A stretch of 62,752 nucleotides of DNA, the filler included, from Nemertoderma westbladi (Eukaryota; Animalia; Xenacoelomorpha): assembly GCA_032718475.1 (NCBI GenBank). It is 3 parts of 3 records of this genome, joined end to end, with 100 filler letters (N's around TTAATTAATTAA, not from the genome) between each part and the next. Parts side by side here need not be neighbours in the genome. Positions count along the whole stretch, not along the records: positions 1 to 17,750 come from JAUCBJ010000352.1; positions 17,851 to 47,897 come from JAUCBJ010002411.1; 1 more part is not named here. One strand, written 5' to 3'. The notes beneath the pieces were generated by a model. It did no database searches. It was not told the DNA's origin and saw only the letters and a list, made by a program, of their open reading frames with translations. Shown here piece after piece: positions 1,284-40,534 of this stretch (its first letter is position 1; each line of letters starts with the position of its first letter). A program made the position numbers and the translations under genes.

Positions 1284-3890
1284 CTATTTCTTACTCTGAT
1301 ACGCCTTTCTCCTCTTCGCCCGTCGACTCTCGGCGATCGCCAGTGCTGGTAGGGGAGCATCAACATCCATCGTGAGTAACGTTTCAGCTTGTCTCCTGGC
1401 GGCTCTTCCTTTCGATGGTAGCGGGATCATATCCGTCCGTCTTTCCAACTCGGTATTGCGTGCCTCTAGGAACCACTTTCCGTCACTGAACTCTTCCATA
1501 TATGAATATAAACGCCTAAGGATCTCGAAGGGGCCGAATAATCCAGCGCTTAGTAATAGATCCACGTAATGGAATGGCAACGTCGCTGTCGTATGGAGGC
1601 GTTTCGGGAACGAAAAGTACCCGCACACCATCTCTTGTGCGATATTTCGAGCGCTTCTCCGCATTTTGGTCTTTACGTGGTTGTTTGCGTAGGTTTCGAA
1701 CATAACCTTATTTCCCATAGCGGTAACGTCCTTCATAGGACATTTTATATTACAGCGGGGGCTAGCGGAATGTCCACGGAAACCGCATGTTGTGCAGAGG
1801 TTGTAAAGGATAGGACAGACTGAAACATCGTGACCCGATGTCGCGCAATAGGGACAATAAAGTATCCCAAGGAGCTGGAGGCACGAATCGGTAACCCGAT
1901 TTCTTCTACCGCGTGGGCACTGCTCCGAACCGCAGTTTCCGCACACCTCCAGTTGCATCTCCCGGCCGACGAATATCGGAATCGGGATGCCGGCGTAATA
2001 CTCGAGTCGTCGGTTGCTTTTAGGAATATTCGCCGTGGCCGGTAGCCCGCGAAAAGCTGTGCTTTGGCGTAGTAGGTTCTCGTTTCGATAACCTTCTTTA
2101 TATCCTGCCGGACGCATCCCGGGTGACCGTTTCTGTCGGTGGATCCATTCGGTCTGCTCGGCATACCACCGGGTAAGTCGCATAGGATCTTGTGGAACGG
2201 AAGGGGTCGTTGCCACAGCTGGTCGGCGAAGAGGTGCCGGGGCGTTCGACGGAGGAATTCCGAGGAGATCTATGGGAGTAGGCGCAGTGCTGGGACCCTT
2301 TTCAACCTGTATCGCTGAGCGGGTCCGTTGGGTGCTGGTACTTGGGATCTCCGAAGACCAGTCTTCGCCCCCCGGGAACGGATATGGAGATAACCTCTGG
2401 CATATGTTGCCAAAGTCATTCAACGCGAAGGTAGTTACTAACTCCCTCGCGGGGCTACCGGAGCCAAGTGGGGTTGATACGCCTGCTTCCGTCGCAGGTT
2501 CGGCCGAGGCGACCCGTTTGGCGGCCGGTTCGTACGCGACTTCCGGATCGAGTTGTCGCTTTGGGGTGGACAGTAGAACACCTTCCTGTAACCATAATTC
2601 CTCCCCATCCGAAGAAATCAGAGGTTCCTCCGCACCTAGGAGATCGGTAATCGTAGGGATGTCGAACGGCCCATTCTCGTCCCAGGATGCGATGACGTTG
2701 AGCGTTTTCGTCTCTCCCGGTGAGATATTCTCTACCGCTTTGAACGCGTGGTCGATAATTTCGTTCCACTCATAGTCGATAAAGGATCTAGGGACCGCCG
2801 TAATGAGACTATCGAGAGTTTTACAGATGAACTTAGTGTGTAACTTAGTGTATGATTCCATTATGACGTAGATGTAGTTCCGTCGCTCCGGATTCTCCCA
2901 CTTGTGGTGGATCGTCCACTTTCTTTCAACGTCCTTCCAGCGACTCTCTCGCTCACTCTTTATTTCTAATTCCGGGTACCCACCATATATCTTATTATAA
3001 TCCTGGAATTTCTGGGGTTTAAAGTCTATACCGCCGTTTAGCACTGCGAGGTAGCCGATACCGGATTTCGTCCGTCTCACCTCTCGGAATCATCGCATGA
3101 ATTCGGCGGATCGTAACCAGGCTAATAGTGTTTGGGTGTCGACGCAATGACTAATGGCGTTGAGATCTTCTCGACAGTTTCTTCCGAAGGGAGCATTAGC
3201 GTAGTCGTTTCGGACATCCGCCTTTATATCCGACCCGATTTTAATGATGTCGAAGTCAAATAGGATCTGTTGGATCTCAGGTGGTAGTAGCCAGATCGCT
3301 CCGGCTGTCCGCACCTCCTGTTTGGATGTCGGAAATATTCGACATACCAACACCAAACCGTCTAGGGTTCCGAGGACGACGACCAAGGATCGACCATATT
3401 CCTTCGTCCCATACTTCTCCTGGTAGTCGTTGCGATTCTGGATAACTGATATACGTTCCTCTTGTAGCGTTGCCGTACATTCCGCTAGGTTTCCCCAGTG
3501 GGTGAGGTACGTACTCTTGTCGTCGACGAAACTTTGGCATCGTGCCAACGTAATCGCTTTCGAGGTGGGCGTCGCGTTTCCCTCGTTGTCGTATATCAAA
3601 CATCGGGATTTGTAGATGCTTTGCTGGAACATTTCCCAGAACGACAACTCATCTCCTCCGGTTGCCTTTGCATTCCGAGTTCTTTTCAGTCTCGTACTAA
3701 CATCGGTCAACCGGAGCTCTCGTAGATTACGGGAATCCGGTCCCTCTCGCCCGGAGAATTTAACGACTCGCACATTCTCATTTATCAGGGCGTTGCATTT
3801 TGTATCAAAGTTAGGGGATCCAGGTTGTGGATATTCCAGTAGATCTATTGTATTACGTAGTTCGCCGATAATTTGGCGATTTGGGTCCAT
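1284..3890 (-). pseudogene. Element 1 ORF3 copy B: DEDDy-like 3'-5' exonuclease + linker + triple Zn-knuckle-like domain (~868 codons, one in-frame TGA at 3090-3092)
   Basis: ORFs 3090..4067 and 1284..3080 are in the same frame; copy A has GGA where B has TGA. Motifs: LIYDNEG (3579-3590), LPPEIQQILFDFDIIKIGSDIKADV, VDTQ, SGIGYLA, YVIME, then CGNC..YCPYCATSGHDVSVC..CTTCGFRGH. Confidence 0.8.
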
Positions 3891-5502
3891 TTGGGTCGGT
3901 GCAGCGCTGGGACCCTTCTCGACCAGTATCGCTGAGCAGGTCCGTTGATTGCTGGTACTCGGAATCTCCGAAGACCAGTCTTCGCCGCCCGGGAAAGGAT
4001 ATGGGGATAACCTTTGGCATATATCGCCGAAGTCACTCAACGCGCAGGTGGTGATTAACTCCCTCACAGGGCTACCGGAGCCGCGTGGGGTGGAAGCACC
4101 TGCTTCCGTCTCAGGTACGGCCGAGGCAACCCGTTTGGCGGCCGGTTCGTATGCAGCTTCCGGCTCGAGTGGTCGCTTTGGGGTAGACAGTAGAACGCCC
4201 TCATGTAGCCATAGTTCTTCCCCTTCCCGAAGAAATCAGAGGCTCCTCCGCACCGAGAAGATCGGTAATCGTGGGGATGTCGTAAGGTCCGTTCTCGTCC
4301 CAGGAATCGATAACGGTGAGTGTTTTCGTCTCTCCCGGTGTAATTTTCTCGACCGCTTTGAACATGTGGTTTATAACCTCGTTCCAGTCGTAGTCGACAA
4401 AGGAAAGAGGAACCGCCGTAATGAGGTTATCGAGAGTTTTACATATGAACTTAGCGACGGTGTAGGACTCCATAATGACGTAGATGTAGTTCTGTCGATC
4501 CGGATTTTCCCACCTTTGGTGTATCGTCCACTTCCTGTCAATGTCCTTCCATCGACCCTCTCGCTCGCTCTTTATTTCCAATCCCGGGTATCCACCATAT
4601 ATCTTATTATAGTCCTGGAATTTCTGAGGTTTAAAGTCGATGCCGCCGTTTAGCACTGCGAGGTAGCCGATACCGGATTTCGTTTGTCTCACCTCGCGGA
4701 ATCCTCGCATGAATTCAGCGGATCGTAACCAGGCTAGTAATGTCTGGGTGTCGATGCAATGACTAATTGCATTGAGATCTCCTTTACGGTCTCTTCCTAA
4801 AGGAGCGTTCACGTAGTCATTCCGGACGTCCGCTTTTATATCCGACCCGATTTTAATGACGTCGAAGTCGAAGAGGGTCTTTTGGATTTCCAGAGGTAGC
4901 AACCAGATCGCTCCGGCTGCCTGCACTTCCTGTCTGGGTGTCGGGAATATTCAACACACCAATACCAAACCGTCCAGGGTTCCGAGGACGACGACCAAGG
5001 ATCGACCGTATTCTTTCGCCCCATACTTCTCCTGGTAGTCGTCGCGATTCTGGATAACGGATATCCGTTCCTCTCGTAGCGTCGCCGTACACTCCGCTAG
5101 GTTTCCCCAGTGGGCGAGGTACGTACTCCTGTCGTCGACGAAACTTTGACATCGCGCCAACGTCATCGCTTTCGAGGTGGGCGTCGCGTTTCCCTCGTTG
5201 TCGTATATCAAACATCGGGATCTGTAGATGCTTTGCCGAAACGTTTCCCAATACGACAATTCATCCCCTCCGGTAGCCTTTGCGTTTCAAGTTCTTTTCA
5301 GTCTCTTACTAGCATCGGCCAACCGGAGGGCTCGTAGATTCCAGGAATCCGGTCCCTCTCGCCCGCAGAATTTGACGTATCGCACATTCTCATTTATTAG
5401 GGTGTTCCAATCTGTATCAAAGTTAAGGGATCCAGGTTGTGGATATTCCAGTAGATCTATCGTATTACGTAATTCGCCGATAATTTGGCGATTTGGGTCC
5501 AT
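3891..5502 (-). pseudogene. Element 1 ORF3 copy A: diverged tandem duplicate of the exonuclease half (two TGA stops, one +1 frameshift near 4220)
   Basis: MDPNRQIIGELRNT start occurs at both 5502 and 3890 (offset 1612). ORFs 5287..5502, 4951..5259 and 4201..4926 are in one frame and match copy B. Confidence 0.85.
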
Positions 5503-6751: not shown

Positions 6752-7930
6752 TTAAACGGGTTTAGCATTGTCACCAATGTCCGCAGCAGGATCTGGAGTA
6801 GGGAACTTATCACCTCTCGTAGAGTCACCGCTGTCATTGCCTTCAAGAAGGCACAGCCTCTGGATAGGGCGTTGGTAGTGGCCCTTTGCCGTTCGTATCG
6901 TCACGGTCCTCGCAAGTCCATCTTTGCTCGGTTGTATTGCAACGACTCGCGCCACAGGCCAGTGGACGCAGTCTTTGAGGTCTTCTTTGACCAGCACCAT
7001 GTCGCCAACTTCGACATTCCTGTAGGTGTTGTTCCACTTCCTCCTGGTCCGGAGGGTTATGAGGTACTCCTGGGCCCAGATTCTCCACCAATGCGCTGCC
7101 AACGCTTGGGCCTTCTTCCAGTTAGTATGTCTCGCGATATCGTCGGGATCCGGAAACATCGTCTCTGGGAGAATATGGGTTTTGGGTCTTCCCAGTAGGT
7201 GGTTAGGCTCCAGGTCTGTGGGGTCGTCGCGGATAGGGACAATGGGCCGGTTGTTCAGGATAGCCGTGATCTCGCAGAATGTTGTGCGGAGGGTGTCGTT
7301 GGTTACCCGTGTGTCCCCTAATGCGACGCGCATGGATCGTTTTACCAAGTCGATGAGCTTCTCCCACACTCCGCTCGTATGGGGTGCTAAGGGTGTTTGG
7401 AAGTGCCACTGTATATGGTGTTCCCTCCAGACTTGGGATGCGGTGTCTTTGGTGAACCAACCCTCGATCGCCTCTCTAAGTTCTCTTTCTCCTCCCACAA
7501 AGTTTGTACCATTATCGGAGTACATATAACGACATGTTCCATTGTTTGCCACGAACCGAAGCAGGGCGTTGATAAATGCATGTTGCGTAAGGTTCACTAC
7601 GAGGTCTAGGTAGATCGCCCTAGACCTAAGGCAGGTAAAGATGGCTCCCCAGCATTTGATGTTGGATCGTCGCTCAATGACTGTGAATGGTCCGAAACAC
7701 TCTACTCTGGTTACATAGAACGGCGGGGAATCGGACTGCAGTCGTGTGGCTGGTAAATCGGCCATTCTTTGTGTGAGCGGTGGCGCTAGATATCTTCTGC
7801 AGGGAAAACAACGTTTTAACACTTTCCGGATCAGTGGCTGGATGTGGGTGATCCAACATCTTTGCCATATATTAGCCATAATCCAGTTCTGTCCTGCGTG
7901 ATGGTTTTCCTCGTGACACTGTTGGATTAA
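6752..7930 (-). pseudogene. BEL/Pao integrase (HHCC, DDE core, DUF5641-like C-terminus)
   Basis: CHEENHHAG...CFPC; VECFGP (first catalytic D replaced by E); YSDNGTNF; GVWEKLI; EYLITLRTRRKW..VGDMVLV..WPVARV..DGLAR. Confidence 0.93.
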
Positions 7931-8163
7931 TAGCTTGGCTAGTGTTGACGTTCCGGGCTGAAGCGCTGGGTATTAGACTTCGTATTAAACCGGGGCGTTT
8001 GCCATCCGGGTATTCAGTGGAATCAGTCCGTCTTCTCCCATCAATGGTCTCAATTGGTAGACTGGACTGTCTGGTTTTAAGGTCTTGCCCACTCGTCAGG
8101 GAAACTTACTTTCTGGACATATCTAATAATACATTTCTCCGCAATGATGCATTCTTGTATACT

Positions 8164-9758
8164 TCATCGAACTATCAGTTTGTTGTCTTTCCACCGCAGG
8201 AAGTTGCGAAGGGTTATGACGTGGAGGATGAGACGTCTCATTGAGGAGGTTCGCTCAATCAATAGTTGTAAAGACGCCGTTGGTTGCGTGATAGTCGCGA
8301 TATTATAGTGCCTGCCCGAGTCCTTTGCAGGCTCGGTCAGACAACTATAGATCTCCACTGTGGCGCTTCTATGGACTTTACGGATCTCCTTGTCGTCTTC
8401 AGAGTATTTTCCGCTATCTAGTTCGGGATTGAATCGGGTGCTCCAGGTTAATTGTGGCTGCTGTAGGAATTCCGGGCCTGTAAGCCAGAGTTTACTTTTA
8501 CTGAGTTGTCTTGGGGTGGCGCCTCTGCTCGATAAATCCGCTGGGTTTTCTTTCCCGTTTACATGGTGCCACTGTTCTCGGCGGTGCACTGTTTTATCTC
8601 AGTGGCTCGGTTCACTACAAACGTGGTGTGTCGCTGTGATGGTGAATGGAGGTCGGTCACCGAACAGTAACCTATGGAGTTTGCGTTCCCTTTGATCTGG
8701 CATTTAGGGAGATATGTATAGGTGTCGGTAGTCTCCTTTTTGATGCAGCAGAGTGTCCATCCCATGATTGTGCGTTCTGCATAAAAGCCATCGTCCGGCT
8801 TTACAGATCGGGCGAAGTCTCCGGTGGGTATGTGTAATTCTGATATGTCGAGTCTGATCAATAGGGTGATTCGGTTCACATCCAACGGTGGACATCGTAG
8901 GTCTACATCTTCCCGGTCTAGCTGTATGAGGGGTGCGTATTCAGCTGATTGTCGGAACTGCACTCGGAGATCGGTGTGTACCAAGGCGTTCTTGATCGTC
9001 AGCTTGTCCGTCTCGTAACCCTTCATAACTCCTTCCATCTTGAGTTGCACCTCCCCGGACTCTACTTCTCTATGGTCGGTGATAGTTTGTATGGGCCATT
9101 TGCAAGGTTCGTAGTCTAGGCCTAGTTGTTCGAGGAAATCCCGGTCGATGATGGTTCCGTCCGACCCGTTGTCAAGGAACGCGAGCGTTGTTAAAGATTT
9201 CCTGACCCCTTGAATTCTTACTGGGATCACTTTGGCAAAGACCATGTAACGGCAGTTTATAAGGTTGATCGTAGCCGAGATATTTGTCACATGTGATCCA
9301 TCGGTGGAGGTCTTAAACGGATTGGTTTCCCTCCATTGAATCGTCCGGGTACCTTTAGAGACGTGGTTCATTTCTCCACTTCGTTTGGCTTCGATCCAGA
9401 ACGGGAGGGTGGTAAAATCAAAGTTCGCAGGGATGTGGAGGAGTGTGTGATGACATATGTCATTACAGACCGCGCAGCACAATCTTTGCTCGCAATCCCA
9501 AACATAGTGACCTGTTCCGAGACACCGGAAGCATCCTCGGTGTTTCATTATTGCCTCGAAGCGTGGGACGAGTTCAGCAAACTGGAACTTTCTGCAGAAT
9601 TCCACCTTATGTTTCTCTCCGCAGAAAAAACATAGAAGGGAGGTTGCGGTGCCTTCCCTTTCGGGTGCCCAATTCGCTACATAACACGCCCATGCCTCGG
9701 CTGATGTCAGTTCCTCGTCGTTGGAATCCTCGGCCATGGTGATGGCCATCGTACTCAC
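8164..9758 (-). pseudogene. BEL/Pao Gag Zn knuckles + aspartic protease joined directly to the RNase H C-terminal end (RT deleted)
   Basis: CFFCGEKHKVEFC / CFRCLGTGHYVWDC / CAVCNDICHHTLLH, then LAFLDNGSDGT, then FVVNRATEI and WHHVNGKENPADLSSRG with no YxDD region between. Confidence 0.9.
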
Positions 9759-9812
9759 CGGAGGGGGGCGGAATCTCGGTTTCGGAGTGGGTGCCCTGCT
9801 CCTGGAGTTGTT

Positions 9813-11855
9813 CTATATTCCATCTAACTTGGAGAGACTTTGTTTAGAGAACATCGAGTCATTCATGGCTTCGGAGATATCATCTAGGAATGCCGACATT
9901 TCGAGGAAACTGGGATCTCGATCTGGGTGTCTGCGTTGGAGATCTATGCATTTATACGCCCACTTGCTTTGCAGCCATCCGGGGAACTTTCGGGCAATCT
10001 GTCGGAGGTTTAGAATGTTGTTTACTTGTTCCTCCTTATTTAATGGTTTTAGAGTGTAATAGGCATCTTTCATGGAATCCGAGAACTCTTGGATATTCTG
10101 TGGTTCCCCTAGGGATCCAGCGTCCTGTATCAGTTTCTCGAGAGTTTTATTAATTATAGTTCCGATATTTCCGTATCTTTTGTCTAGAGTTTTCCATGCA
10201 TCGTAGTAAGCTTCATGAGATCCTCCCTCAAAACATTTAATGATTCGACGTGGTTTGTCACCCAGGTATTGGGATAAATATACCAGTTTTTGTGCATCAG
10301 TTATATCCGTTGATCCGATCTGAGCGAAGAACCGTTTCTTAAATCCAAGGTAATTGACGGGGTCTCCCTCGAACTTGCGGATCTCCATCTTGGGCATAGC
10401 CAGGCGGTTTTCCAATGCTCGGATAATGCCGACGTCATCTGAACTGGAATGACTAGGAGGATTATAGTTATTAACACTCTCTCCCACGCAGGATGGGTCG
10501 ATGAGAGGTGGAGTTTTAATGATGACGCGGTTACGGATTTGTGGTGTGGATGTAAATGGAATGTTGGGTCGAGGGGTGGCGTCCCGTTCCGAGTCCTTTT
10601 CAGGCTCGTACTTGGGAACGCTCGGTACCGTGGGGTTGGATGGGAAATAAGGTTCCTCATTCTTAAGCGTAACCGGTGGGGGATGGAATACCAGTGCTTG
10701 TGCCGATAACGTAGACTGTATGGTTGGCGGGAACTCGGGTTTCGGAGGTTTCGCCGCCGAAGGCGTAAATGACTTCTCTAATTCCGGGACCGGGATTGGT
10801 TCATAGTTCTGTTCTATACCCCTTTCCCAGTCCTCATATAGTTGAAGATCCCGTTCTATGAGTGCGGCTTCGTATTCCGCGAGTTTCGCAATATCCGCAT
10901 TCTTTTTGTGGATGAGAATCGCTGGGGCCTCAGCATGTTGTTTACACATTTCTGCCTCTAGTTTACGTTGTTCGGCCTCTTGTTTGGCCTCTCATTCACG
11001 TTGTTCGGCCTGTTGTTCGGCCTCTCGTTTACATTGTTCGGCCTCTTGTTCGGCCTCTCGATCACGTTGTTCAGCCTCTCCTCTACGTTGCTCGGCCTGA
11101 TGTTCGGCGTCTCGTCTACGTTGTTCGGCCTGTTGTTCGGCCTCTCGTTAACGTTGTTCGGCCTGTTGTTCGGCCTCTCGTTTACGTTGTTCGGCCTGTT
11201 GTTTGGCCTCTCGTTTTTGCATTTCGGCTGCTAATACATCCTGTTCGATCTGCAGTTGAACATATTCGTCTTCCATTCGAGCTTTAAGGGCCAATGCCCT
11301 CTGTTCTCATAGCTGATCTCGGAGTAGCTGACCCCCTTGAGAACTGTGCGCTGAACCGGATATCTCGCTCCTAGTGCTGGAGTGCTGGTGCCTTGAGGAC
11401 CCCGTTCTCTTTCGATGAATTGCTGTCCTGGTGCTGGAGGTCTGTACCAATTCTGCGTCTGTTATTTCAGTTCACTTATAGTACTGTTCCTCGTAGCCTC
11501 TCATGAGGCTGAGGGTCCTCCGATGTTGTTTGCAAAACTCATCTAGATGTACAATGTGTTCTTCCAGTCTGGGGTAGTTTACCTGATCGGTGGCGGGGAT
11601 GAGTTCTTGATATGCCTGTATCATCCTCTCATATCGTTGTAAGATACTTCGGATATTCTGTAGCTGAGTCTGTATCTCGTTGAGGGGGGTTTCGACTCCC
11701 CTTAGTTGTTTCTCTATACGTTGATATGCTCGAGTGACTCCGCCTTTGAGAGCACCTAATCGACGGGTCATGTTCTTTACGTTCGGTACCTCGTCGATTT
11801 CCGAGTCTGTGTGGTGGTCCATCTCATCGGTGTCGGAGACGTTGTTCATTGTCAT
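9813..11855 (-). pseudogene. BEL/Pao gag of element 1 (stops/frameshift), with coiled-coil EAEQR repeat at ~10960-11230
   Basis: ORFs 11472..11855 and 9813..10949; MPKMEIRKFEGDPVNYLGF..QKLVYLSQYL..YYDAWKTLDKRYG; same frame as 8559..9758 across a TAG. Confidence 0.88.
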
Positions 11856-12043
11856 TCTAGCGCCTCGTTGATAGCTAGATATGCAATGTCGTAAAATAGT
11901 TCTTCGTAGGTCTCATATTCAGCCTGGACTACCCGAACGGTAATCCTGAATCGTCCAACGTTCGTTCCTTGTACTTCGACTTCGACGTGCCAGATTCCTG
12001 GCTCAACTTGGATTATATCAATGGGTGTGATCGATACTCCCAT
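11852..12043 (-). CDS. Small upstream ORF (63 aa) overlapping the gag start by ATGA
   Basis: ATG-initiated, protein-like composition; its TGA overlaps the gag ATG at 11852-11855. Confidence 0.35.
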   Translation of the reverse strand: MGVSITPIDIIQVEPGIWHVEVEVQGTNVGRFRITVRVVQAEYETYEELFYDIAYLAINEALE

Positions 12044-12563: not shown

Positions 12564-13742
12564 TGTTCGCTCAGATTCTAACCTAACTAATGTTCCCCAA
12601 TTTTCCCTCGGTCCTAGTCTCGGTACCGTAGTGTCGGTGTCGGTCGACCCTGTTGCGTGTCCGTCCCACCCTTTCAGGAAGCGGTACGGCTTGGCTAAGG
12701 GTCGGTCCAGTCGGTAGACCCGGTTGTGTGTCCGTCTCACCCTTCCCCAACCCCGAAGGGATCGGTCATCAGGAAAGTGGTACGGCTTGGCTAGGGGTCT
12801 GTCGTGTCGGTGGACCAGTTTGCGTGTCTGTCCCACCCTTCCCGAACCCCAAAGGGATCGGTCATCAGGAAAGCGGTACGGCTTGGCTAGGGGTCCGTCA
12901 GTTCATCGCAGGGACCCAACCACCTAGGCTTTTCGAGTCCTTATTCAGGCTCGTAGTTGCTTTGGTAGCCGAGAAGCTGCTCCGAACAGTCGGTAGGCCA
13001 GTGGGGTACGGTCCTTTGTCTTTCGACCCCGTTGCGTGTCCGTCCCACCCTTCCCAAACCCCGAAGGGATCGGTCATCAGGAAAGCGGCATGGCTTGGCA
13101 AAGGGTCTGTCAGCCCATCGTGAGCCCCAACGGTTGGTGGTTTTCCGAGTCCTTATTCAGGCTCGTACTAACGCCGGTCGTGGAACCCACTCCAGGAAGG
13201 CAGTCCTCGTCGAACCCTTCCTCCGTTAGTCGGTCGACCCATCGCAAGTCACTGGTGTATGTCGGCAGGCTTTCCGAGTCCTTATTCAGGCTCGTACTAA
13301 CTGCCACCGACCAGGGACCACTAAAGGTCTGTCTGTCGGTTCCCGTCGCAAATCCCTGACACAAGCAGCTGACTTTCCGAGTCCTTTTTCAGGCTCGTAA
13401 TAACTGCTGTTGGCCAGGAACCGCTAAGGGCAGTCCTTGTCCTTTAGACCTAGCGAGTTACCAAATACACCTCTACAGGCAGCAGGAAGTTGGCTAGGCC
13501 TAATAGTAATCAGGGAAACCTGAATACTGCTTAACTTTGCCTCCCACCCCTGGCCCTTAAATACATGAAATGAGTCCTGTACCCGGTATGTCGCCCCAAT
13601 ATTCGCCCATAAATCGCCCCCAGGCCATTGAATGTGCCCAAATCCTATGTTCCCGCACCCAGTAGTGATATCGGAATATTCTTTTAAAATAAATCCAAAA
13701 AATATTCAACTCGCGTTAAGAAAAGTTGAAATACCCCGAACA
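12564..13742 (-). repeat. 5' LTR of element 1 (~1.18 kb)
   Basis: Starts TGTTCG at 13742. Inner end inferred at CGAACA (12564), which gives a perfect 6-bp terminal inverted repeat. The inner boundary cannot be checked because the other LTR leaves the window. Confidence 0.8.
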
Positions 13743-16343: not shown

Positions 16344-16349
16344 TTTTAA

Positions 16350-18030: not shown

Positions 18031-18062
<32 letters not shown>

Positions 18063-26708: not shown

Positions 26709-27098
26709 ATGTCTGACACAAAGCAAAACCTGTCAGACAGTCTCCTAGATACAACCATCTGTGACGCAGACAGGAGTATGGAACGTGTAAGACCGAAGTT
26801 CAACTCACCTCCTACTGTAAGAAAGATCATCCCTCCAGTAGTAGTATCAGACCCTAGGCTAGTCAAACATCGTAGGTCTATCATAGGCACTCGGGCTCAA
26901 GTCAAGCGGGACCAAGTAGCAGCTGTTAAACAGCTGCAACACTCGAGCCGAGAACTTAGTTTTCAGCAGCCCGATAGCTCCAGTAGTGCTGATACTGTAG
27001 AACTGACACCCGAGCGCGGAATGATGGAAAGATGGCAGATACGGTTTATTCGGATCCCCTTCTCATTCTTCCTGCATCCGTACTCACTAGGGTATTGA
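26709..27098 (+). CDS. Upstream ORF (129 aa) overlapping gag, or a frameshifted gag N-terminus
   Basis: ATG-initiated ORF right after the AT-rich leader; overlaps the gag ORF in a different frame. Confidence 0.35.
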   Translation: MSDTKQNLSDSLLDTTICDADRSMERVRPKFNSPPTVRKIIPPVVVSDPRLVKHRRSIIGTRAQVKRDQVAAVKQLQHSSRELSFQQPDSSSSADTVELTPERGMMERWQIRFIRIPFSFFLHPYSLGY

Positions 27099-30000
27099 TT
27101 GCGGTGGAAGAACACCAGATTGATTGGGCGAGAAGTATGCGATCGACCAAGGACAGTTATGCGGGATACGCAAGGGAGGAACTGAAGTCTATTGTCGAGT
27201 CGCAATGGAACTTCCCCGGACCCGGACTCCCGTTTGAAGCTGCCTGGGAAGACATACACAGGATGGGAGTAACGAAAGACACTAGGGATCCAGCTGTGTG
27301 GAAGGGGTCGGCAGCAGGATATGTACAGGGATTCTTCAGCTCTTTAGAGCGATTAGAAGAACAACTGTTTCGACAACCCCAAGGACCTCAAGAGCAGGGA
27401 GAGCTGCTTTATCAAGTTAGAGAAAGAATTCTAAGAATCAGACTAATCCTATTGGCCTTTGAGGAAGCTTCGAAAAGAAGACAAGACACGTCGTTGCAAG
27501 TTGCCGTAAAGACTTGGTTCCAGCGGGTGAGTCTCAAGGATCAAGGAGCGGCCCGGTGGAAATCTCAGCTGGCTGAGTGCTCAACCCATGGAGAATCAAC
27601 AGACGCTACCTTTTCCCAAGTGGAAAGTGAAGCGACAGCAGAGAAACCGCATAAGAGGGATGCTATTGACATCTATCTGTCAGACTATCAACGATTTCTA
27701 TGTGATGAAGAGTTGAGGAGAAGGCTAGCTGGACTTCGTCCGAATAGCGAAGGAACCAAGCTTGTGTTGGACGCAATCGATGCGGAAATGTTAGCTGCGA
27801 ACCAAGCTAAATTTGATGAAAGACTCCGCATCGCTAGGGTCCAAGAAGAACAAGTAAAGAGAAAACGTATAGAAGACAGAAAGACAGCAGCAGCGGCAGT
27901 GGCAGCGGCAGAAGCGGAAAGAAAAGCGGCAGAGGCGGAAAGAAAGATGGCAGTGGCAGAAGCGGAACGGAGAGCGTCTGAAGAGACCACCCAACTAGAG
28001 TTGGAAAATATTCAAGAGAATCAAGACTGCATAAATAAACAGTTAACAGGTAGTCAAATGCAGATGATGAGTCGATCTACTCCCAAGAGGCAGGGATATA
28101 CATCATCTGATGAAGGCGATACCACCGATCCTGAAGGCGGAGGAAATAGATCTCGTTTAAGCAGACGGAGAAGAATGCCTCACCGTCAGAAATTGCCTGA
28201 TTTGCCCCCAGCTGTTAGAAGGCGACTAGCTAACACTAACTTAGGTAGTACAGAACCCACAGGCCAAATTATTAAAATAGAAAGACTCCCTACTATAGTA
28301 GATGAGCCTGAAATAATTAGGCCTATTCTCGAAGCCACCCCTTCGGTGATAGAGACACCTGTACTCCCTGAAACTACCTCTAAATTCCCTCTGCACAGCA
28401 CTAAACTGCCTGTACCCAACAGAACCACCCCTGAAAATGTTCATATCCTGGACTCCGAGCGAAATATTAATGATTTGTCGCCCGTTGTCCCTCGTCCGCC
28501 CGCTACAACGTTGGCGCCTCCCGCTTCGACGGTCGAGTGGGTAGATGAGGGACGACGGGAGATGGGTCTCCTGCTCGGGCAGCTGAGGGAACACCATTCT
28601 TGCTCCTCTCAGCAGGTCCGGGAGATGGATGGGACTGTGCAGCAGTTAAAGGGAACAATCAGAGAGGGTAGGTTAGAGTTGCAAGAAGTGCAGCAGTGTA
28701 TCGCGTTAGAACGCGACAAATTAGTAAATATCCAAAAGGGTATACCACCACCCCCTGTAACAATGTGTCAACCTGTTAGGTCTGAAGTATTTCATGCGCA
28801 AGGTGTGGAGCCTACACGCATCTATACTGCTAGTGAAGTAGAAACTCCTATAGCAAACCCTATTAAGGGTAATTATAAACCTGTTGACAATGATATTCCA
28901 TATAGACCTGACCATAATCCGAGAAATTTATATACCGATAACTCGATATTAAATAACACGATGGCCCAAGAAAGTTTTACACGTCAAATGGCTAGAACCG
29001 AAGCCCGTCAAGCGGTAAAGGTGGGAGAGATCGTCAAGTTCAATGGAGATGAGATGAAATGGTTACCTTTTACTGAATATTATAAGGATAACATACAGAA
29101 CTCTGTGCTATCTAACGGAGAGAAGTTTAGATTCCTCATCGAGTGCTTGGAAGGATCTCCCAAGTTAATGGCGTTAAAGTTTATTGGACATCCAGATGGA
29201 TTAAGACAAGTTTGGGATACACTAAACATCAGGTATGGTAATAGGAATAACATAGCTAGATATTTGTATGCAAAATTGGTAGCGCCCCGAAAGTTCATTA
29301 GCAACGGGATTATAGAGTTTTCCGATGAGATTCAGGAGATCTGTAGACAATTAGATTGGCTAGGTAAGTCTCATGAATATCAGAGTTCTATGGTTATTGG
29401 AGCCGTGGCCTCTACTTTACCAAAGGGTGGAGTAGGTACACGCTGGGACAAGAAAGTCTTATATATGATGGAACAACAACGAAGAGACCCTACCATGGCT
29501 GATCTCATGTCATTCTTAGATGGAGAGGTGAAATTGCAGCTCCTAAAGCAGTCCAGAGAGAAGACACCGGAAAATAAGGTAAGTGAGAAACCCGTTTCTA
29601 GGAGAAAGGTAACACCAGTGTGTTATACAGACGACTGCGAAAGCCAGGCTTCTCAAGAAGAAGACAGCGGGAAAGACACTGAAAGATCTTACTATGTCAA
29701 TAAAGCTTCTAAAGACGTGAGTAAATTTAAGTCTCGAACCAATGACAGGAGAGAACAGGTAAGAAAAACTCCTCCTACGTCTCCTAAGAGAATTCATATA
29801 AGGAAGCCCGAGGAAAGAACTAGTGTGCACAACGTTACCCAAAGTAAGGTAAGTAACATTAAACCGAAATGTGCGCTGTGTGACGGGCCCCACCGATTGA
29901 GTGTGTGTGATGAATTTCTCAAGAAATCACTCAAGGATAGGCGTGAAGTCATGTAGGATAAGCGGTTGTGTGATAATTGCCTCAGACAAGGACACCAACG

Positions 30001-33000
30001 GCGAACCTGTTACTCCGACACAAGGTGTGCAAAATGCGGTGCGAAACATCATATCTTGTTGCACACTGAATTCGAAAGAAACAGCCCGAGTCAGGTAAGT
30101 GAGTTCGAACTACATGTCCAATTCAGTGATGTGAACGACACTGACCAAAGTTCTGAGATGGAAGGATTCTATACAGATGAATTCTCCGACAAAAACGAAT
30201 CCTGTTACCTAATAAATACCGCAGTGTATCGAGCACTTACGTATGAGAAGGAAACCGACAGGGAGCTTCTCCCCCCAACTGCTCCTGACCGACAACTATC
30301 TTGGAAAGCACCAACTTCCAATGTAGGAATCAGAGAATTTCCCGTAGTGCAGTTGAGAGTCCACGGGCCTAATCAGAGTTATATCGTAAACGCCCTCCTT
30401 GACTCCGGCAGCACAGGAACATTTATTGACAAAGAGCTAGCCGAGGACATCTTTGCTGGACAACCCAAGTTCCGAACTAAGTTAAACATGTCTGGAATTA
30501 TGCAGGTTTGGAAATCTACAGTAATCGCAGATTATTATGTAGGTGCGTTGTCCACTCCCCAGGATGAACTAGGAGAACACAGTATAAGGTCAGTAAAAAT
30601 GGTGGCGATAAAGAACTTCGCTACCAGCCAAGTGGAACCTTATAACTGGGATGAGGACGAGTTCACCCAGCAGCATAGGATACCTAGATTCAATACAGAC
30701 TATCCTGGAGTGCAAATACTTATCGGCCAAAATGCGCATGAGGCGCTTAAGACATTGGAGAAACGGCCTACTCGACCGCAACCACTACAAACCTATGCGG
30801 GAAGATGTTGGTACTTTACTGGCCCTTCCCGTAGAACCCTCATGGAAAGGTTACCACAAGAACAGGTATACCAGGTAAGTGAATGGGGAGAGGAGAACAG
30901 TGAGGTAGACAAACCAACTGAGGGAACACCATACTCCTCAGATAATGATGACATCCATCAGCTCTTTGACGAGGAGAAGACCATCGACCTCCTTACGGAA
31001 AACGAAACTTGGCAAAACCAAGTGAATCTATGTCATCTCATTCATCCAGATGAACAAGTGTATAACGACGAACTTAATGAAGTGATAGATCGCTATAACG
31101 CGAAAATTCGAGATGAACACGCCGTACGATTCTTTACTCAAGAGGCTGTAGAGCCCAATTCCTACGATAAGGCCCTATCGGTAGAAGAAGAAAAAGCCAA
31201 GCAGATCCAGGAGACAACTACACGTTTTCTCAAAGATCAAGGCAGATACGAAATTGGTCTGCCATTTAGAAAGCGAGAACCTAAATTCATAAACAACTGA
31301 CTCTTGGCGGAGAAAAGAATTGCGCAACTACATCGACGCCTTATGGCAAATACTTCTGCTAAGGAAATGTACAAGGCTCAATTGGAAAAATTTATTAGCA
31401 AGGGATATGCAGAACGAGTACCTGAAGGAACACCCACAACTGAGAGAACATACTATCTAACACATCATTACGTTCCCAAACCCCGTAAACCCAATGAAGT
31501 CCGGGTAGTATTGGACGACTCCGCCCTCTACATGGGCCAATCCCTTAATTCCGAGTTGTTGCCAGGACCCAACTTACTCCAATCCTTGTTGGGAATACTC
31601 CTAAGATTACGACAATATTTCATCGCTTTCGCCTCCGATATAGAAGGCATGTTCTTACAAGTTAAGGCGCTGGATAGGGATCGAGACAGCCTACGATTTC
31701 TGTGGTGGCCGGAAGGGGACCTCAACCAGAAACCGGTGGAGTACTGGATGACCATCTAGGCTTTTGGGATCATCTCAAGCCCTTCAAACGCCTGCTCAGT
31801 AGTGCGCACCACTGCTGATGACAACCGGGACGCCTTCTCTAAAGAGGTGATCGACAATATCAAACGGGATATATACATGGACGACAATTTAAAGTCCCTC
31901 CCATCGGTGGAAGAAGCCATTGATGTCGCCAAAGGAACGGTAGAGTGCTTAAAAAGAGGTGGATTTCGATTAACTAAATTCACCAGCAACTCCCGTGAGT
32001 TTCTGGAATCGATCCCGGTAGAAGATCGAGGAGCGAAAGATCTAGACCTAATCAAAGACGATCTTCCAGAAACCAAAACACTTGGTTTGAAATGGGACAC
32101 GGAGAGAGATATCCTGTTTTTCCAGCTAAAACAGCGAGATAATCCAGTTTGGACTAAACGGATTTGTCTAAGTATCCTGAGCACTTATTTCGATCCATTG
32201 GGATTTATTAGCCCAGTTATATTGATTGCTCGGAGTTTAGTACAACAAATGTGGCTTGAAAACCACTCATGGAACGATCCACTTAAGGGAGAACTATTAA
32301 AGAAGTGGATGAAATGGGAAGATTCTCTACCATCCATCGAGAACTTTATAATTTCCCGTTCATATTTTGGTCATGTTCTCCCTACGTATTCCTATCAACT
32401 CCATGTGTTTGGAGACGCCAGCGATATGGGAATAGGTATAGTAGCCTACCTGAGAGTTGAAACTCCGGATGGAATCAAAGTCGCCTTGGTTACCTCTAAG
32501 GCATTGATAAATAACAAGTTGAAAGTTCCTCGAGCGGAGTTAAAAGCGGCTCTATACGCTACAGCCATCGGCCGGAATGTCACAGAACAGATCGAATATC
32601 CACTGGAAAAAACAGTCTATTGGACCGATGCTTTACTCGTGTTGGAGTATATAACCAATGAAGTTTGTCAGTTCAGCGTCTTCGTTACCAACAGAGTAGC
32701 CATTACACTTAGTCGCACGAAGATAGATCAATGGAGACATTGCCCTGGGACGATTAATCCAGCAGACATCGCCTCCAGGGGAGCAACTCCGCAAGAACTG
32801 ATAGATACTCCAGACTGGTTAGGTGGACCCGACTTCCTAAGCAAAGAAGAGGATGAATGGCCTCCTCATCTTACTACGGCGGAGATTAGACAGGCCAAGG
32901 GAGCGGAGAAAGTCAAACCTAAAACTCGGGCGAGTAAATCGAAGTTATTCAAACCTGCGATAGATCTGTCTGTACTACACGTTTCCAGAGACGATGCTTT

Positions 33001-34761
33001 GGATCCACAATCCCCCGCCACAAATAAGTCTGTTGTGGAAATCAGAGAGAGAGATTGGAAATCTGGAACGCCAGACGTCTCGCAAGGACTCTCACCCCTC
33101 CTGCAGAGAGTGATACATCACTATAGTTCCTGGAATCGGCTCTGTAAGGCCGTTACATATTTAAAGCGATGTTTTCATCATCACTACTCCCGGACGAAGA
33201 CCACTTTGATACCGCTCCACTGACATCTGTGCAGGTCCATGTTGTTAAAGATCTTCCCAAATACAAGGTATCAGATAGGTTTCTGACGGAGAAGATCAGT
33301 TACCAGAAGCATGAAGAAACCAATAAGCAGATACTGAGACTCCTGCAATGCTATGAGGATTCCGATAAGTATTTCCTGTTGTTGAGAAATCCACAGATGC
33401 GCTTAAGGGATCGTTTCTCTAGCACAATGATAGATGGGTTAATACGTGTTGAAGGAAGACTAACTAATGCTCCATTATCCTTTGACAATAAGTTTCCCAT
33501 ACTCATTAGAAATCTTGAAATACAAATCAAGATGATTGTAGATGTTCACAGTAAACTTTATCATGCTGGTAGAGAACGAGTTCTTAGCGAAATTCGAACT
33601 CGCTATTATTTTTATAAACGCCGTAGAGCTCTGAACCAAGTTCTTAGGAACTGCATACCCTGTAGGAAAGCATTCAGTAGGCCTTTAACACAGCGAGAGG
33701 CAGAATTACCTAGGCAACGAGTAAGCTTCTATGAACCACCCTTTACCAATACCGGTGTGGATTTATTTGGCCCTATTGAAGTATATGGTGCTAGGACTAT
33801 AGTCAAGAGATGGTGTGTCATCTTTGTATGTATGACTTGTAGAAGAGCTATCCATCTCGATATGGTGAACGATTTGTCTACCAATAGCTTCCTATTGAGC
33901 TTACGCCGACAGATCGCTCGCTTTGGAACTAGTAACACGATGAGATCTGATAAGGGAACGAACTTCATTGGTGCCAACAATGAAATCAAAGCTTACGTCA
34001 AAGATTGGAACCATTGACAGGTGGACGATCAGCTAAGGGTAACAGCGTCTAGCTGGACCTTCAACGCCGCCGATGCCCCTTGGTGGGGAGGGAGTTGGGA
34101 GAGATTAATCAGGAGCGTGAAGACCGCATTTCACTTTATAGTGCCGTGCCGCGCGTATCTCACCGACGAACTTTTGCGGACGTTAATGGAGGAAATCGCC
34201 GCCTATCTCAACGAGAGACCGCTTATGCCAGTCTCATCGAGTCCCAATTCCCTGGAAGCGCTAACACCCGTGCACTTCCTACTGAAGAAACCTGTAGCCA
34301 TGCTCCCACGATCGGAAATCACGGACGGAGACGAATACTGCCGGCAAACTTGGCAACTTATGCAGTTGGTATCCCGTCGTTTCGCTGACCATTTCGAAAA
34401 ACATTATCTGCCCATGCTACAACTTCGAACTAAGTGGTTTACACAACAAGAAAACGTCAGCGCTGGAGACATGGTTCTTATTGTGGATTCAGATCTTCCA
34501 CGTAAGCGGTGGCAGACAGGTCGTATCATCGAGACTCATATCTCGGAGGATGGTTTGGTGCGATCGGTAGAACTCGTCGTCATGCGACGTAACTTTAAGA
34601 AACCGGGAATCATCTTTGAGACACAGCAACTCAATCGCCCAGTTGGTCGTTTATGTTTACTGGAAAGAGACAGAGAACTCTCCGGAAACTATGGAAGGCA
34701 AGATACTCTTCCCACGACCACCTCCCTAATCCCACAAACATCTAGGGACTCCCCAACGTAA
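27032..34761 (+). pseudogene. BEL/Pao gag-pol polyprotein (4 in-frame stops, 1 frameshift near 33180)
   Basis: KFNGDEMKW (DUF1759-like), CALCDGPHRLSVC/CDNCLRQGHQRRTC/CAKCGAKHHILLH, protease LLDSGS, RT PGPNL..DIEGMFLQV..YMDD, RNase H VFGDASD..PRAEL..WTD..NPADIASRG, integrase GVDLFGP/SDKGTNF/GSWERLI. Confidence 0.97.
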
Positions 34762-36397: not shown

Positions 36398-39300
36398 ATG
36401 ACTGAGTTGATAGAAGATGATCTTGGTATCAGGGAGCGATATACTCTACCTTTACAAGCGTTTGTTGATAGCTTGATACGCGGCGACGCTAGTCCAACTA
36501 CTACGGAGGACGATGGTCGTTATATCAAACCGCCAATGTCCCAGAAGCAACTTACGCGTGAATTGGACTATCGAAAATTCACCGCTCGCTATACGCATCG
36601 TAATGGTACTATATGGACTTCTTAACTACTGGTCATCCTATCGATTTACACGATACGGACGATGTAGACACCGAAAGGGAAATGATTTTATTTAAATATC
36701 ATACCCAGCGGAGTCGGAACGATAAACCGAGAATAGAACACGAGAATTCTATTCGAAACCGACTCGAAAGAGAGGATGTTGAAGAGCCAGATAAACGCAG
36801 TAACTTCAACGATTATCTGGAATTCTTGAGAGAAACATATCTCAATATTGCCAGTCTCGACTTGCAGACTCGATATCCTCAAGGTATACATCATGACCCT
36901 ATGATAGAACTCAAACGGCTCTATTTCACTATGATGTATCTTACTGCCGATCGACCGCTACCTGTCGTCCCAGATAACTTCGAACAGATGGAGGAATATT
37001 GTAAAACTGGAGAGCGATCACCCGCGTTTCCCTTGCAAGATGTGCGTCTTTGGCTGTGACGAATGCCCTAGACCCAATCAGCAAACCGAAAGACATAAAC
37101 ATCCGCGGAGACGTTGCGCTAAACACAGTTTTACGCGATATACTTATGGGAGTTTCGAGCGAAACCTGTTCACTAGACTCAAACGATCCTTGAATAAACC
37201 AATGATCAGAGTTCCGGAATACTCGGTCAGACCTCCTCATTCTTTAGTGAGACCTCAAACGCTCGATCCTAATAGTATAACGGATCCCCCTGAACTGTAC
37301 TCGCTATTTAAAGATCTTGTGTTACCTGAACAATTAATCGGTGGCACTCCGGTAGTGGGCTCGCTAGATATTCGCCCATCCTATCTAGCCGGATTAGGAC
37401 ATGGTCATCTGATATCACCGTTTAACCCGTACAACCGTCCAGGTTTAACCCCGATACAACCCGTTACCGAAGTCGAAGAGAGCATTGCACGAAACGCGTT
37501 AGACGCTATTCGGCAGAAGATCGGAAAGTTTAGAGAAACGTAAGTTGCAGCAACAAGTCCAAGCGGTGAAGGAATTAGCTTTACCCCAGTTCGATCGAGA
37601 AATCCAGAATCTCGAGGAAGACATCGAACGTGGACGAACCTATTCTCTACAAGAGTTTTTAGACGATCGTTTACAACAACAAGCGGAGGAAAATCAGCTC
37701 GAGGAGAAACACATAGAAATGGATGAGAGAGAAGAAGCAGCTTTAGCCCGGCCAGAAGCTCAAATCCTTATGACTGATCTCTATTCCAAAACCATAGCTG
37801 ACGCTCCCATGTTGCAACACCTGCCAATTGAGGCCACTCGTGTCGACGGTATACTCGTTGAACCTCCGGACAATAGAGCGGATCTTGTCCATCGTATGGT
37901 ACACAAGGTCAACATACGCGCTAGACCTTTACCGAACTCGTTTTATGGGATCAAAGATCACCCTTATTATGTCAATCTAACTCAATATTACATGGTAAAA
38001 CCGGAAGATCCTACACATAGTTTGAGGTTTCTACCACTAATAAATCCTCTCGACCTTGTCGAACTCGAACAACTGCAGAAACATCTGGATCAGTTGGTGA
38101 AAGTAAACTCATTCCGAAAACCCTATAATGTTTCCCGAATAGAGAAAGATACAATACCTCCGTATAATCTTGATGGATTTATCAAAACTCGATTAGTCCA
38201 CTGGAATCTCGACGTGTTATTCGAGGAGGAAAGAATACCACGATATGGAGATGTAGAAACATATACCCCACAGTATTTGAGGTATAGAGATCTACCTAAT
38301 GCTAGCAAATGCGCCACCTTGTGGCATCCAGTGGGAATGACTCTAGAAAACGCCACTAAAGAGTGGAACGAGACTCTTAACGTTATCGAGATGTATGGAG
38401 TTGTCACTCACGATAACGAAGGTAGCGTTCCGGTTGGAGAACTGGGAACTCCGTGCATGATACATATATGAGGACTAGCTGGTTCTACCCACGTATTTAC
38501 TCGAGCGTGTTCCGATGTGATTGATTATTCTTTTGAGACCCTTACCGAGTTACAAAAGAAACTCCGACATGGACAATTCGAACTCGCGCAGCGTTACGTC
38601 ACTGACACTGAGCGCAAACCGGCCATGGGTATCGATGGATCAATGTTACCCCAGCCCATGCTCGAGATGTTGTTTAACGAAAGAATCCTTAAAATCGGCT
38701 CAGCTGTTTATGGAGATCTCCAAAACGACTTTCAGAACATGGAGAACATTCCATATCCTTTCGTCGATACTCAGCGGATTGCTCCCTGGACAGAAGGCCG
38801 AGGTTTCTTCCACACTATGTATGCCAATACACCCAGCAGCATTACTAAAGTACAACGAACCTCCATTGGACATCTTGCCTTTCAAGAATATGGATGGAAT
38901 TTCAAGGTTGGAAATCCTACCAACTACCAACAAGTATATGGAGATCATTATTCTCGATTATACTTTGACGGACCATTGACCGCACCGGGCGCCATGTATA
39001 GCTTTATGAGGTTTCCACTTCGTCCCTCCTTAGCTATATACACGATCTTTGAAAACGCCGCACTTGCCGGTTGGCTAGCCGATGTGTGCAGTCGTACTAT
39101 ACGCGCCCATCCCTTAATACTTGGAACCAAACTCGCCAAGTTAGATGAACACAATAAATTCATCCGTTTCGAATGTTTCAGGCGCTTCTAGACTCCGTTC
39201 CGTAACGTTGATAGTCAATTCAAGGACCGCGCTCTGACTAAGCTCAGCCTAAGAGACTCAGCAGCTGAGAAATTAGACAGCGCTGGATTCGCTATTTTCA

Positions 39301-40534
39301 AGGACGTTTGTATACAGAACTTACATTACTCTGTTATACAAAGACCTCGAATACCCACGGGTTATTCTATCGTGGAAGTTCAGACAATAGGTTCACTTGC
39401 GGAAACAGCCGCGCCTACCTCAGCTATGCAATTGGAAGACGAACCAGTTTAGAATCTGAGGAGATTCAGCCTACAGCGCCCCGGAGTAGCGATAACGATT
39501 ACGTCTTAGAATGGTATCAAGGTCCACAATGTCTCACCGCATACGATTATCGGCACGCCAACTATGTTTCTCGAAAACGTTGCCGATTATGTGCATTGAG
39601 AGATCATTTCACCCCCATGGACTCAGACGTACCCTGCTCCTATTTCCATGAGCAACCGGTGATGGAGATTTATTGTGCGTATTGCAGACTCAATAACTCA
39701 CACATTTTTGCAGTCTGCCCTCAATTTATGACTCAATGTCATCATTGTCAACTTAAAGGAAATGCCAGTTTTGATTGCCCTTTTAACCGCGATCTGGAAA
39801 GCGTAGATTAGATGATTACCCTGCGCTACATCCGAGCTTGGGAAGCGAATGCGGATTTACATTGTGAGTCACGCCATCGCTATTACCCTGGACGCGCCTA
39901 CGAAGGAGTTTACGCGTTCCATCCTTATCGATTCGAATCTGTTGAACAAAAATCACGCACACCGAGTGACGAACTAATGAAGCGTGTTGGTGAGTGTATT
40001 TCCACCAAATTTGTTCGTAAATATCTCAGGAATATCAATCCTAACGATATCCATTCATACCACTTGATCAATTTCATCCGTCAAGACCCGGAGTATGGTG
40101 ATCTGTTTATCAACTCGCATTCAGAGTTACAGGAAGTACATCGACGGCCCTATGAATATCAAGCCCGAGAACGCGAGTTGGAAAGAACCATTAAACCGAG
40201 GAAGTTTCTCACCACTCACGGTCGACCTACCACTATCGTTCAGATGACTCGTCAAGGACCTGTAGGAGCTGCTGTCCTAAAACGCGCTCTAAAAGCCGTT
40301 AGACCTCGCTCCTCTGAGGTTGATATCAATCAACCAGGTACCTCGACCGGCGGATACACTGACCGTAATCCTAAACCTTCTGATGCAATTGTATTGCACC
40401 CTTCACCCAGGAGTTATAGCCCTCCTAGTAAAGTGGCTCGCCCCAAAGAGAGAAGGACTCTTGCTAGCCTCAAAAAACTGCGTAAACGCCGTCCGCGCAA
40501 GAAAGAGTATTTAGAGTATTTAGAGACTGTTTAG
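36398..40534 (+). pseudogene. Element 2 ORF3 (~1370 codons reconstructed): unknown N-terminal region + DEDDy-like 3'-5' exonuclease + triple Zn-knuckle-like domain + basic tail
   Basis: Seven consecutive plus-strand ORF pieces tile 36398-40534. Motifs: VVTHDNEG (38412-38423), LPQPMLEMLFNERILKIGSAVYGDLQND, FVDTQ, SIGHLA, IYTIFE, then CRLC..H, YCAYCRLNNSHIFAVCP, CHHCQLKGN. Confidence 0.8.

Follow-up and report, generated by a model that had tools for sequence, protein, structure and literature searches.

A predicted DEDDy-like exonuclease gene with zinc knuckles behind pol in two divergent BEL/Pao retrotransposons of Nemertoderma westbladi

To our knowledge, accessory enzymes are rare in animal retrotransposons with long terminal repeats (LTRs). 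Here we describe a stretch of 62,752 nt, filler included, of the Nemertoderma westbladi assembly GCA_032718475.1 (the window), in which two LTR elements were read from the sequence. Element 1 lies on the minus strand and runs from position 13742 to past the window start, and element 2 occupies 24013-41798 on the plus strand, a span of ~17.8 kb with a 51-bp satellite repeated on either side. Both are BEL/Pao elements, and each possesses a third open reading frame (ORF3) on the sense strand behind pol, in the env position. The encoded proteins are predicted to unite a DEDDy/RNase D-type exonuclease-like domain with a C-terminal array of three Cys/His knuckles and a basic tail. A preliminary description of this DNA had proposed such a module as a selected component of an exonuclease-bearing BEL lineage.

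Two BEL/Pao elements and their third gene

DUF1759, an aspartic protease, an integrase zinc finger and DUF5641 were matched by Pfam in both elements, with Peptidase_A17 in addition in element 2. The gag-pol region of element 2 matches DUF1759 (E = 4e-11), Peptidase_A17 (E = 2e-36), Integrase_H2C2 (E = 2e-7) and DUF5641 (E = 2e-21); the reverse transcriptase (RT) was identified by reading the translation, and the order is gag, protease (PR), RT, RNase H (RH) and integrase (IN). Element 1 is organized alike but lacks RT and most of RH. Both elements have TG..CA LTRs and a polypurine tract, which is clear in element 1 and short in element 2, and the two LTRs of a pair differ by 45 mismatches in 1069 positions (4.2%) in element 1 and by 8 in 857 (0.9%) in element 2. 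No target-site duplication is legible, since element 2 is bordered by satellite and element 1 runs into the window edge. The great divergence between the elements that had been proposed is evident from the failure of blastn to return any match between them and from protein identities of 26% for gag, 24% for the protease and 32-36% for the integrase.

The two sides of element 2 are occupied by the 51-bp satellite, at 23897-24017 (2.4 copies) and 41798-44537 (53.8 copies); these flanks, together with a 5' LTR that lacks ~330 bp, may reflect an assembly error or a rearrangement. The LTRs of element 1 (1-782 and 12630-13430) contain GC-rich tandem repeats of 96 bp and shorter, and its gag contains a 33-bp coding repeat (10950-11216).

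Gag, protease and integrase stand among the gag and pol components previously attributed to element 1, but RT has been deleted with most of RNase H: the protease reading frame is continuous with that of the last RNase H motif, and the RT of element 2 found no match in element 1. Contigs of the element 2 family from 4/4 runs contain a skip of ~1.78 kb (joints 30944/30948 to 32724, net 1758 nt) which spans the same domains that are missing in element 1 and ends ~40 nt from the motif at which element 1 resumes. This points to an RT-less gag-PR-IN-ORF3 derivative that recurs in two families distant from each other. DNA contigs of the element 2 family also show a skip of ~1.7 kb over the integrase (joints 32911/32913 to 34621), one form of which has GT..AG ends; it is possibly a retroposed spliced RNA.

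ORF3 is separated from pol by a non-coding spacer of 1.25 kb in element 1 and about 1.6-1.8 kb in element 2 (1.2-1.6 kb in the preliminary description). The distal copy of the nuclease-like domain in element 1 (minus strand) displays YDNEG at 3593, GTLDG at 3371, KIGSDIKADVRND at 3242, DTQ at 3140, GIGYLA at 3062 and IYVIMES at 2873, and element 2 (plus strand) displays HDNEG at 38409, KIGSAVYGDLQND at 38691, VDTQ at 38763, SIGHLA at 38862 and IYTIFEN at 39036. All motifs quoted in the preliminary description were recovered in their places, in colinear order. The ORF3 proteins of the two elements match in BLASTP with E = 4e-9 (27% identity over 111 amino acids, aa); their exonuclease-like parts score 98 against a shuffle maximum of 59, and their knuckle parts 72 against 63 (0/1000 shuffles in each case). 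The ORF3 pair is therefore homologous, as had been claimed, and keeps the same slot and domain order in elements without DNA similarity.

The sense-strand location of both genes agrees with the earlier account, but the single long open frame described for each does not. In element 1, ORF3 holds two in-frame tandem copies of a 1.61-kb unit (3895-5502 and 2278-3890, 87.5% identical), with a whole nuclease-like domain in each unit and the knuckles present once, after both. The joint sits right at the start codon, which makes it likely that the duplication arose through a template switch from one family member to another. Neither window copy is intact: element 1 has stops and one frameshift, and element 2 has several stops and frameshifts; the proteins measure 870-1400 aa. 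Although ORF3 is in the env position, as reported, no envelope family was matched in Pfam and other curated-library searches, and hydropathy revealed no envelope-type anchor: maxima are 0.4-1.2, and a lone stretch reaching 2.1 aligns to core strands of the nuclease fold. The N-terminal part of ORF3 in element 2 has no family match in Pfam, and the same holds for a Cys/His cluster within it (36935-37200, plus strand).

A profile search of 1.84 billion representatives recovered one further protein, P0003 (648 aa, E = 2e-10), which is intact and is encoded as a singleton on a 9.4-kb ENA contig. Its layout comprises a nuclease-like domain, a low-complexity linker, three knuckles with an aromatic block, and a basic tail. 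The C-terminus of P0003 matches that of element 1 (E = 3e-12) and, weakly, that of element 2 (E = 0.015), and its knuckles match the HIV nucleocapsid (E = 1e-4). With three knuckles per ORF3 and the shuffle test above, the zinc knuckles of the preliminary description are supported. The basic tail is common to all three proteins (8-12 Lys/Arg within the last 30 aa). Word-based protein searches, each within a length range, yielded no further relative; none was confirmed when contigs from metagenomes, viruses and prokaryotes were scanned for the pattern, tblastn against plasmids and phages gave nothing below E = 6, and PHROGs returned one exonuclease family at E = 0.29.

ORF3 is under purifying selection in both elements, as the preliminary description had supposed. 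The tandem units of element 1 differ by 0.354 at synonymous (dS) and 0.071 at non-synonymous sites (dN), a dN/dS of 0.20 over 529 codons (p = 2e-25) that is not near 1; the ratio is 0.18 in the domain alone and 1.3-1.5 in other frames, and differences at codon positions 1, 2 and 3 number 35, 40 and 115. This dS greatly exceeds the divergence of the LTRs, which places the separation of the units, under selection, before the present insertion. Element 2 belongs to a large family, as contigs of 4/4 runs cover all 30 bins and run X1 holds 136,131 pieces, depth being no measure of copy number. Variation within its nuclease-like domain was assessed on 40 listed rows out of 173 variant rows, on which the following figures rest. 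Third codon positions account for 19 of the 22 segregating sites and for only 4 of the 18 sites private to the window copy (p = 7e-5); one of these private sites is the internal stop, and no indel occurs among the rows listed. Segregating sites are thus biased to the third position and private sites are not, so that the family keeps its frame under selection while the window copy decays. In the interval 38340-39120, the 18 private differences in 781 nt (2.3%) exceed the 0.9% divergence of the element 2 LTRs, which may be due to descent from a donor whose decay had begun, to LTR conversion or to errors in the assembly.

Fold and active site of the nuclease-like domain

The ORF3 domain very probably adopts the DEDDy/RNase D-type (RNase H-like DnaQ) fold, as predicted from profile comparisons. 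The reference set consisted of 55 bacterial DEDDy domains, L127 being left out as a partial match. With a hidden Markov model (HMM) of these domains, element 2 and P0003 score 17.2 and 17.3 bits and outrank all 900 shuffles and all other frames of the window (element 2, 0/300 shuffles). Aligned by hhalign, the profile of the three ORF3 domains matches that of the 55 references with a probability of 94.7% (E = 6e-8, 100 columns), against at most 1.5% for 100 column shuffles and 0.9% for the reversed profile; element 2 alone reaches 77%. An AlphaFold model of the P0003 domain, guided by the DEDDy references, has pLDDT 77, pTM 0.75 and a core above 90, and resembles solved structures of Nibbler EXO, NrnC-type diDNases, EXD1, RNase D, Rrp6 and WRN at Z of 14-15. 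In Atlas, the three clusters nearest to P0003 all carry PF01612; the first combines PF01612 with zf-CCHC in Euglenozoa (0.86, a lead only), and the second is EXD1-like. The stop-free frame of element 2 gave a best value of 0.75 there, which is uninformative. The three ORF3 domains group together in a tree (99/98), which names no donor because the branches are very long and the references bacterial only.

Several observations count against this assignment. Pfam and PDB sequence searches with ORF3 gave nothing over threshold, and no nuclease was matched in PDB; the best Pfam domain match of P0003 (PF01612, E = 0.05) and the best curated match of the element 2 domain (RNase D TIGR01388, E = 0.007-0.008) are both under the curated cut-off. 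The hhalign match spans only the segment from ExoI to just past ExoII. Element 1 alone scores -0.2 bits with the HMM, a value equalled or exceeded by 7/300 shuffles, and 0.7% with hhalign, so that it is assigned to the fold indirectly, by way of P0003 and element 2. Default MAFFT left the DNE motifs of the window proteins off the DxE of the references. Each window protein carries an insertion of 45-75 aa in the N-terminal half, at differing places, which accounts for the weak direct matches and for the misplaced ExoI. Finally, the AlphaFold model was fed the 55 DEDDy sequences, and hence the model and the fold searches made with it indicate compatibility and are not independent proof; unguided single-sequence modelling of the element 2 domain produced no fold (pLDDT 34). 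The preliminary description had named profile and structure searches as the means of checking the fold: those against Pfam and PDB stayed below threshold, whereas the profile-profile comparison and the guided model agree with it.

It could be argued that the motif match is due to chance, or that ORF3 is no exonuclease but a passive host fragment devoid of function. Such a view could invoke the curated-library matches, every single one of which is under cut-off, the recovery of one homologue only in 1.84 billion representatives and the broken state of both window copies. It is at odds with the dN/dS of 0.20, with the third-position bias and the lack of indels in the listed rows of the element 2 family, with four concordant profile lines, and with a slot and domain order common to two elements without DNA similarity. 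We consider it highly improbable and already largely refuted.

The candidate catalytic residues can be placed on this fold. The D-x-E of ExoI is aligned by hhalign as DVE/DNE/DNE and ends a strand (34-41) in the P0003 model. The Asp of ExoII and the Tyr of ExoIII are kept in 3/3 ORF3 domains and in 55/55 references. In contrast, the last acidic residue of ExoIII is Glu in 3/3 ORF3 domains and Asp in 55/55 references: both elements read YxxxE in place of the canonical Y-x3-D. The site consequently reads D-E-D-E, and ORF3 is classed as a DEDDy-like variant and not as a canonical member. Of the DEDDy signature proposed earlier, the fold, D-x-E, Asp and Tyr are retained and the final YxxxD is not; the Asp-to-Glu replacement, like the tandem duplication and the RT deletion in element 1, goes beyond that description. 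A two-metal site composed of D-x-E, D and Y-x3-E is predicted, and the domain is probably an active nuclease. The four acidic positions and the Tyr are kept in sequences that are 22-30% identical and in both tandem copies, and their conservation over a divergence of 70-78% argues for catalysis.

The same residues bear on the rather unlikely alternative that ORF3 encodes an RNA-binding adaptor with little or no catalytic activity, in the manner of EXD1 or Egalitarian; such an adaptor might act in nuclear export, oocyte transport, particle assembly or the sequestering of PIWI-interacting RNA (piRNA) factors. Egalitarian is an inactive RNA binder of the same fold, and the fold matches include EXD1 as well as complexes of Egalitarian with RNA, in one case the I-factor localisation signal. 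The Glu in 3/3 domains and the large core insertions in both window proteins are also in keeping with an adaptor. EXD1 is described as an inactive RNA binder in the available text of PMC5408684, and the residue replaced here binds metal A in the RNase D of Trypanosoma brucei, TbRND (PMC7797062, partial text), so that activity may be reduced or lost. However, binders of this fold usually lose catalytic residues (discussion of PMC5408684, partial text), whereas the four acids and the Tyr persist in ORF3; 0/6 candidate site codons are among the 40 of 173 variant sites listed, which is weak evidence. A literature search retrieved no paper on a 'DEDE' DEDDy enzyme and nothing on Asp-to-Glu mutants of ExoIII.

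Precedents and possible roles

The idea of a DEDDy exonuclease in this position, which the preliminary description took to be novel, is not. DEDDy exonuclease ORF3s are known from the bdelloid LTR elements Juno and Vesta and from Athena/Terminon retroelements, and the rotifer carriers include Ty3/gypsy-type elements (Rodriguez, Kenefick, Arkhipova 2017, PMC5408684, available text). As in N. westbladi, a DEDDy-type gene occupies the ORF3/env slot there and lacks transmembrane or coiled-coil envelope features. The carriers are Juno, Vesta and Penelope-like elements, no BEL/Pao carrier being named in the available text; the rotifer motif is DEED and not D-E-D-E, and no C-terminal knuckle array is described for the rotifer proteins. 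The Terminon case is repeated in PMC6431247 (partial text), and a DnaQ-like domain has been called a well-known accessory domain of LTR elements (PMC6338049, partial text).

For BEL/Pao elements, the Belpaoviridae profile of the International Committee on Taxonomy of Viruses (PMC8742986) gives genome sizes of 4.2-10 kb and names no third gene other than env-like ones. The elements described here share with that family the gag-PR-RT-RH-IN order, the Pao-type Pfam domains, the LTRs and a third gene after pol, but differ in an ORF3 that is not envelope-like, in the ~17.8 kb of element 2 and in its lack of a tRNA-type primer site. The word 'nuclease' is absent from the available main text of a BEL/Pao survey (PMC3118150), and PMC5348765 contains nothing on exonucleases. 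Across the literature searched, to which Repbase, Dfam, GyDB and subscription journals did not belong, no report of an exonuclease in a BEL/Pao element or of a knuckle-bearing D-E-D-E protein was found. The concept thus has a precedent, and what is new here is most likely the carrier superfamily, the pairing of nuclease and knuckles in a retroelement, and the changed last catalytic residue. ORF3 in BEL/Pao may represent a separate capture or a wider pool. Evidence of selection is available here, whereas the rotifer study found none for its ORF3s; the function of those published proteins is untested in the text available (PMC5408684), and P0003 provides an intact natural homologue that can be assayed directly.

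The closest design among cellular enzymes is that of TbRND, in which a DEDD exonuclease domain is likewise followed by an array of RNA-binding CCHC knuckles. These knuckles contact RNA at 5-9 nt from its 3' end and pass it on to a two-cation site, and this domain pair trims guide RNAs (PMC7797062, partial text). The P0003 model superimposes on TbRND (7c42) with Z = 14.4 over 207 residues. TbRND differs as a cellular mitochondrial enzyme with four knuckles and the canonical D-E-D-D (same source), against three knuckles and D-E-D-E here. Since TbRND has no sequence match to P0003 at E up to 10, the two are likely to share a design without being orthologues, and by this analogy we infer that ORF3 encodes an RNA 3'-trimming enzyme. 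The host genes of the PF01612 group (Nibbler/Mut-7, EXD1, EXD2/WRN-exo and Egalitarian) share the predicted fold (Z with the guided P0003 model: Nibbler EXO 15.3 and 14.8, EXD1 14.5, WRN 13.9, Egalitarian 13.1), but have no knuckle array and are 12-20% identical, and no donor can be named among them.

The reading that we favour, with a probability of about 40%, is that the ORF3 protein trims or destroys small or antisense RNAs and would thereby weaken host silencing. It is preferred because the gene stands apart from Pol, because host relatives of this fold act at the 3' ends of small RNAs, and because an RT-less copy keeps and doubles ORF3. Mut-7 and EXD1 are among the host relatives named in the available text of PMC5408684. 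ORF3 would be expressed from its own subgenomic RNA, as is usual for the env slot, and the basic tail would import the protein into the nucleus. The knuckles would grip single-stranded RNA and present its 3' end to the catalytic site, as in TbRND, and the predicted two-metal site would trim that end; the substrate would be piRNA, small interfering RNA or antisense RNA. The persistence of ORF3 in element 1, which has no RT yet a doubled nuclease domain, speaks for a role apart from the element's own RT. Nevertheless, such retention fits any role exerted in trans or at the RNA level, and substrate, activity, expression and localisation are all matters of inference or prediction. A more specific version appears doubtful to us, namely that an old BEL/Pao lineage carries a TbRND-like nuclease (D-E-D-E with three knuckles) which degrades or mis-trims piRNAs, an enzymatic suppressor of germline silencing kept and doubled by RT-less derivatives. 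If ORF3 does act on piRNAs, it would constitute a counter-defence enzyme on the transposon side in animals.

A role in replication is possible but less probable, in which an active nuclease would trim RNA, primer or cDNA of the element itself at the 3' end. It is compatible with the same fold evidence, nucleocapsid-like knuckles could package the protein, and 3'-end processing has been proposed for the rotifer ORFs (PMC5408684, available text). This explanation gains from the LTR ends, since element 2 shows a self-priming signature: no TGG primer site or tRNA-type primer-binding site follows its 5' LTR, and the 12 nt just after that LTR (24887-24898) are the exact complement of the LTR segment 24126-24137, a match attained in 1/300 shuffles. 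Element 2 thus appears to self-prime in a Tf1-like manner. If the loop beyond the paired 12-mer were then cut, the nuclease would be needed to trim in the 3'-5' direction back to the duplex and so generate the primer end. Were ORF3 to trim primers, this would bear on the start of reverse transcription in BEL/Pao elements without a tRNA site. On the other hand, ORF3 is a separate gene and is not fused to Pol, and element 1 has candidates of both kinds for the end of its 5' LTR: CA|TGG at 12274, or ~12251, followed by a 12-nt complement of 12462-12473 (minus strand), 220 nt upstream.

Coordinates and neighbouring sequences

Table 1. Parts of the two BEL/Pao elements, with positions counted along the window.
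Feature	Position	Strand	Evidence or remarks
Element 1 5' LTR, part matching the 3' LTR	12674..13742	-	94.8% self-match to 25-1104; end candidates down to about 12251-12275
Element 1 gag, split over frames	9813..11912	-	DUF1759 E = 8e-14
Element 1 gag knuckles and protease, in frame into last RNase H motif	8559..9812	-	Asp_protease_2 E = 5e-5; junction translation
Element 1 RNase H C-terminus and integrase	6752..8598	-	Integrase_H2C2 E = 1e-7, DUF5641 E = 3e-29, tblastn
Element 1 ORF3, first tandem unit: exonuclease-like domain and linker	3895..5502	-	D/E 5205-5191, D 4854-4816, YxxxE 4485-4465; several stops, one frameshift
Element 1 ORF3, second tandem unit: exonuclease-like domain (3593-2853) and linker	2278..3890	-	one stop 3090-3092
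Element 1 ORF3 C-terminus: three Cys/His knuckles (1943-1752), conserved aromatic block, basic tail	1284..2277	-	E = 3e-12 to P0003; alignment
Element 1 polypurine tract (1113-1105), then 3' LTR starting at 1104 and truncated at window start	1..1113	-	self-match
Element 2 5' LTR, lacking the initial ~330 bp present in the 3' LTR	24013..24886	+	8 mismatches/857 vs 3' LTR
Element 2 gag-pol: gag, protease, RT, RNase H region, integrase	26993..34761	+	several stops, one frameshift
Element 2 ORF3 N-terminal part, ~600 codons, several frames, start uncertain	36398..38303	+	translation
Element 2 ORF3 exonuclease-like domain	38304..39119	+	D 38412, E 38418, D 38715, Y 39039, E 39051; one stop 38469-38471
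Element 2 ORF3 C-terminus: three Cys/His knuckles (39581-39778), basic tail	39269..40534	+	stop 39809-39811
Element 2 3' LTR	40605..41798	+	start inferred from purine run then TG; 40934-41790 matches 5' LTR

Outside the two elements, an intronless ORF of 414 codons at 46506-47750 (minus strand) matches dynein regulatory complex protein 9 / IQCG (E = 4e-66) and may be a host gene or a retrocopy. Two decayed fragments of non-LTR retrotransposons lie at 59092-60297 and 49820-52247, both on the plus strand (RVT_1, E = 5e-23 and 6e-19, respectively). An integrase-core fragment at 21350-22353 (plus strand; Pfam rva_4, E = 1e-6) is probably the remnant of a DNA transposon, and small DNA transposons likely account for a near-perfect hairpin of 125 nt at 23392-23643 and for inverted-repeat pairs at 52762-53659 and 57911-60645.

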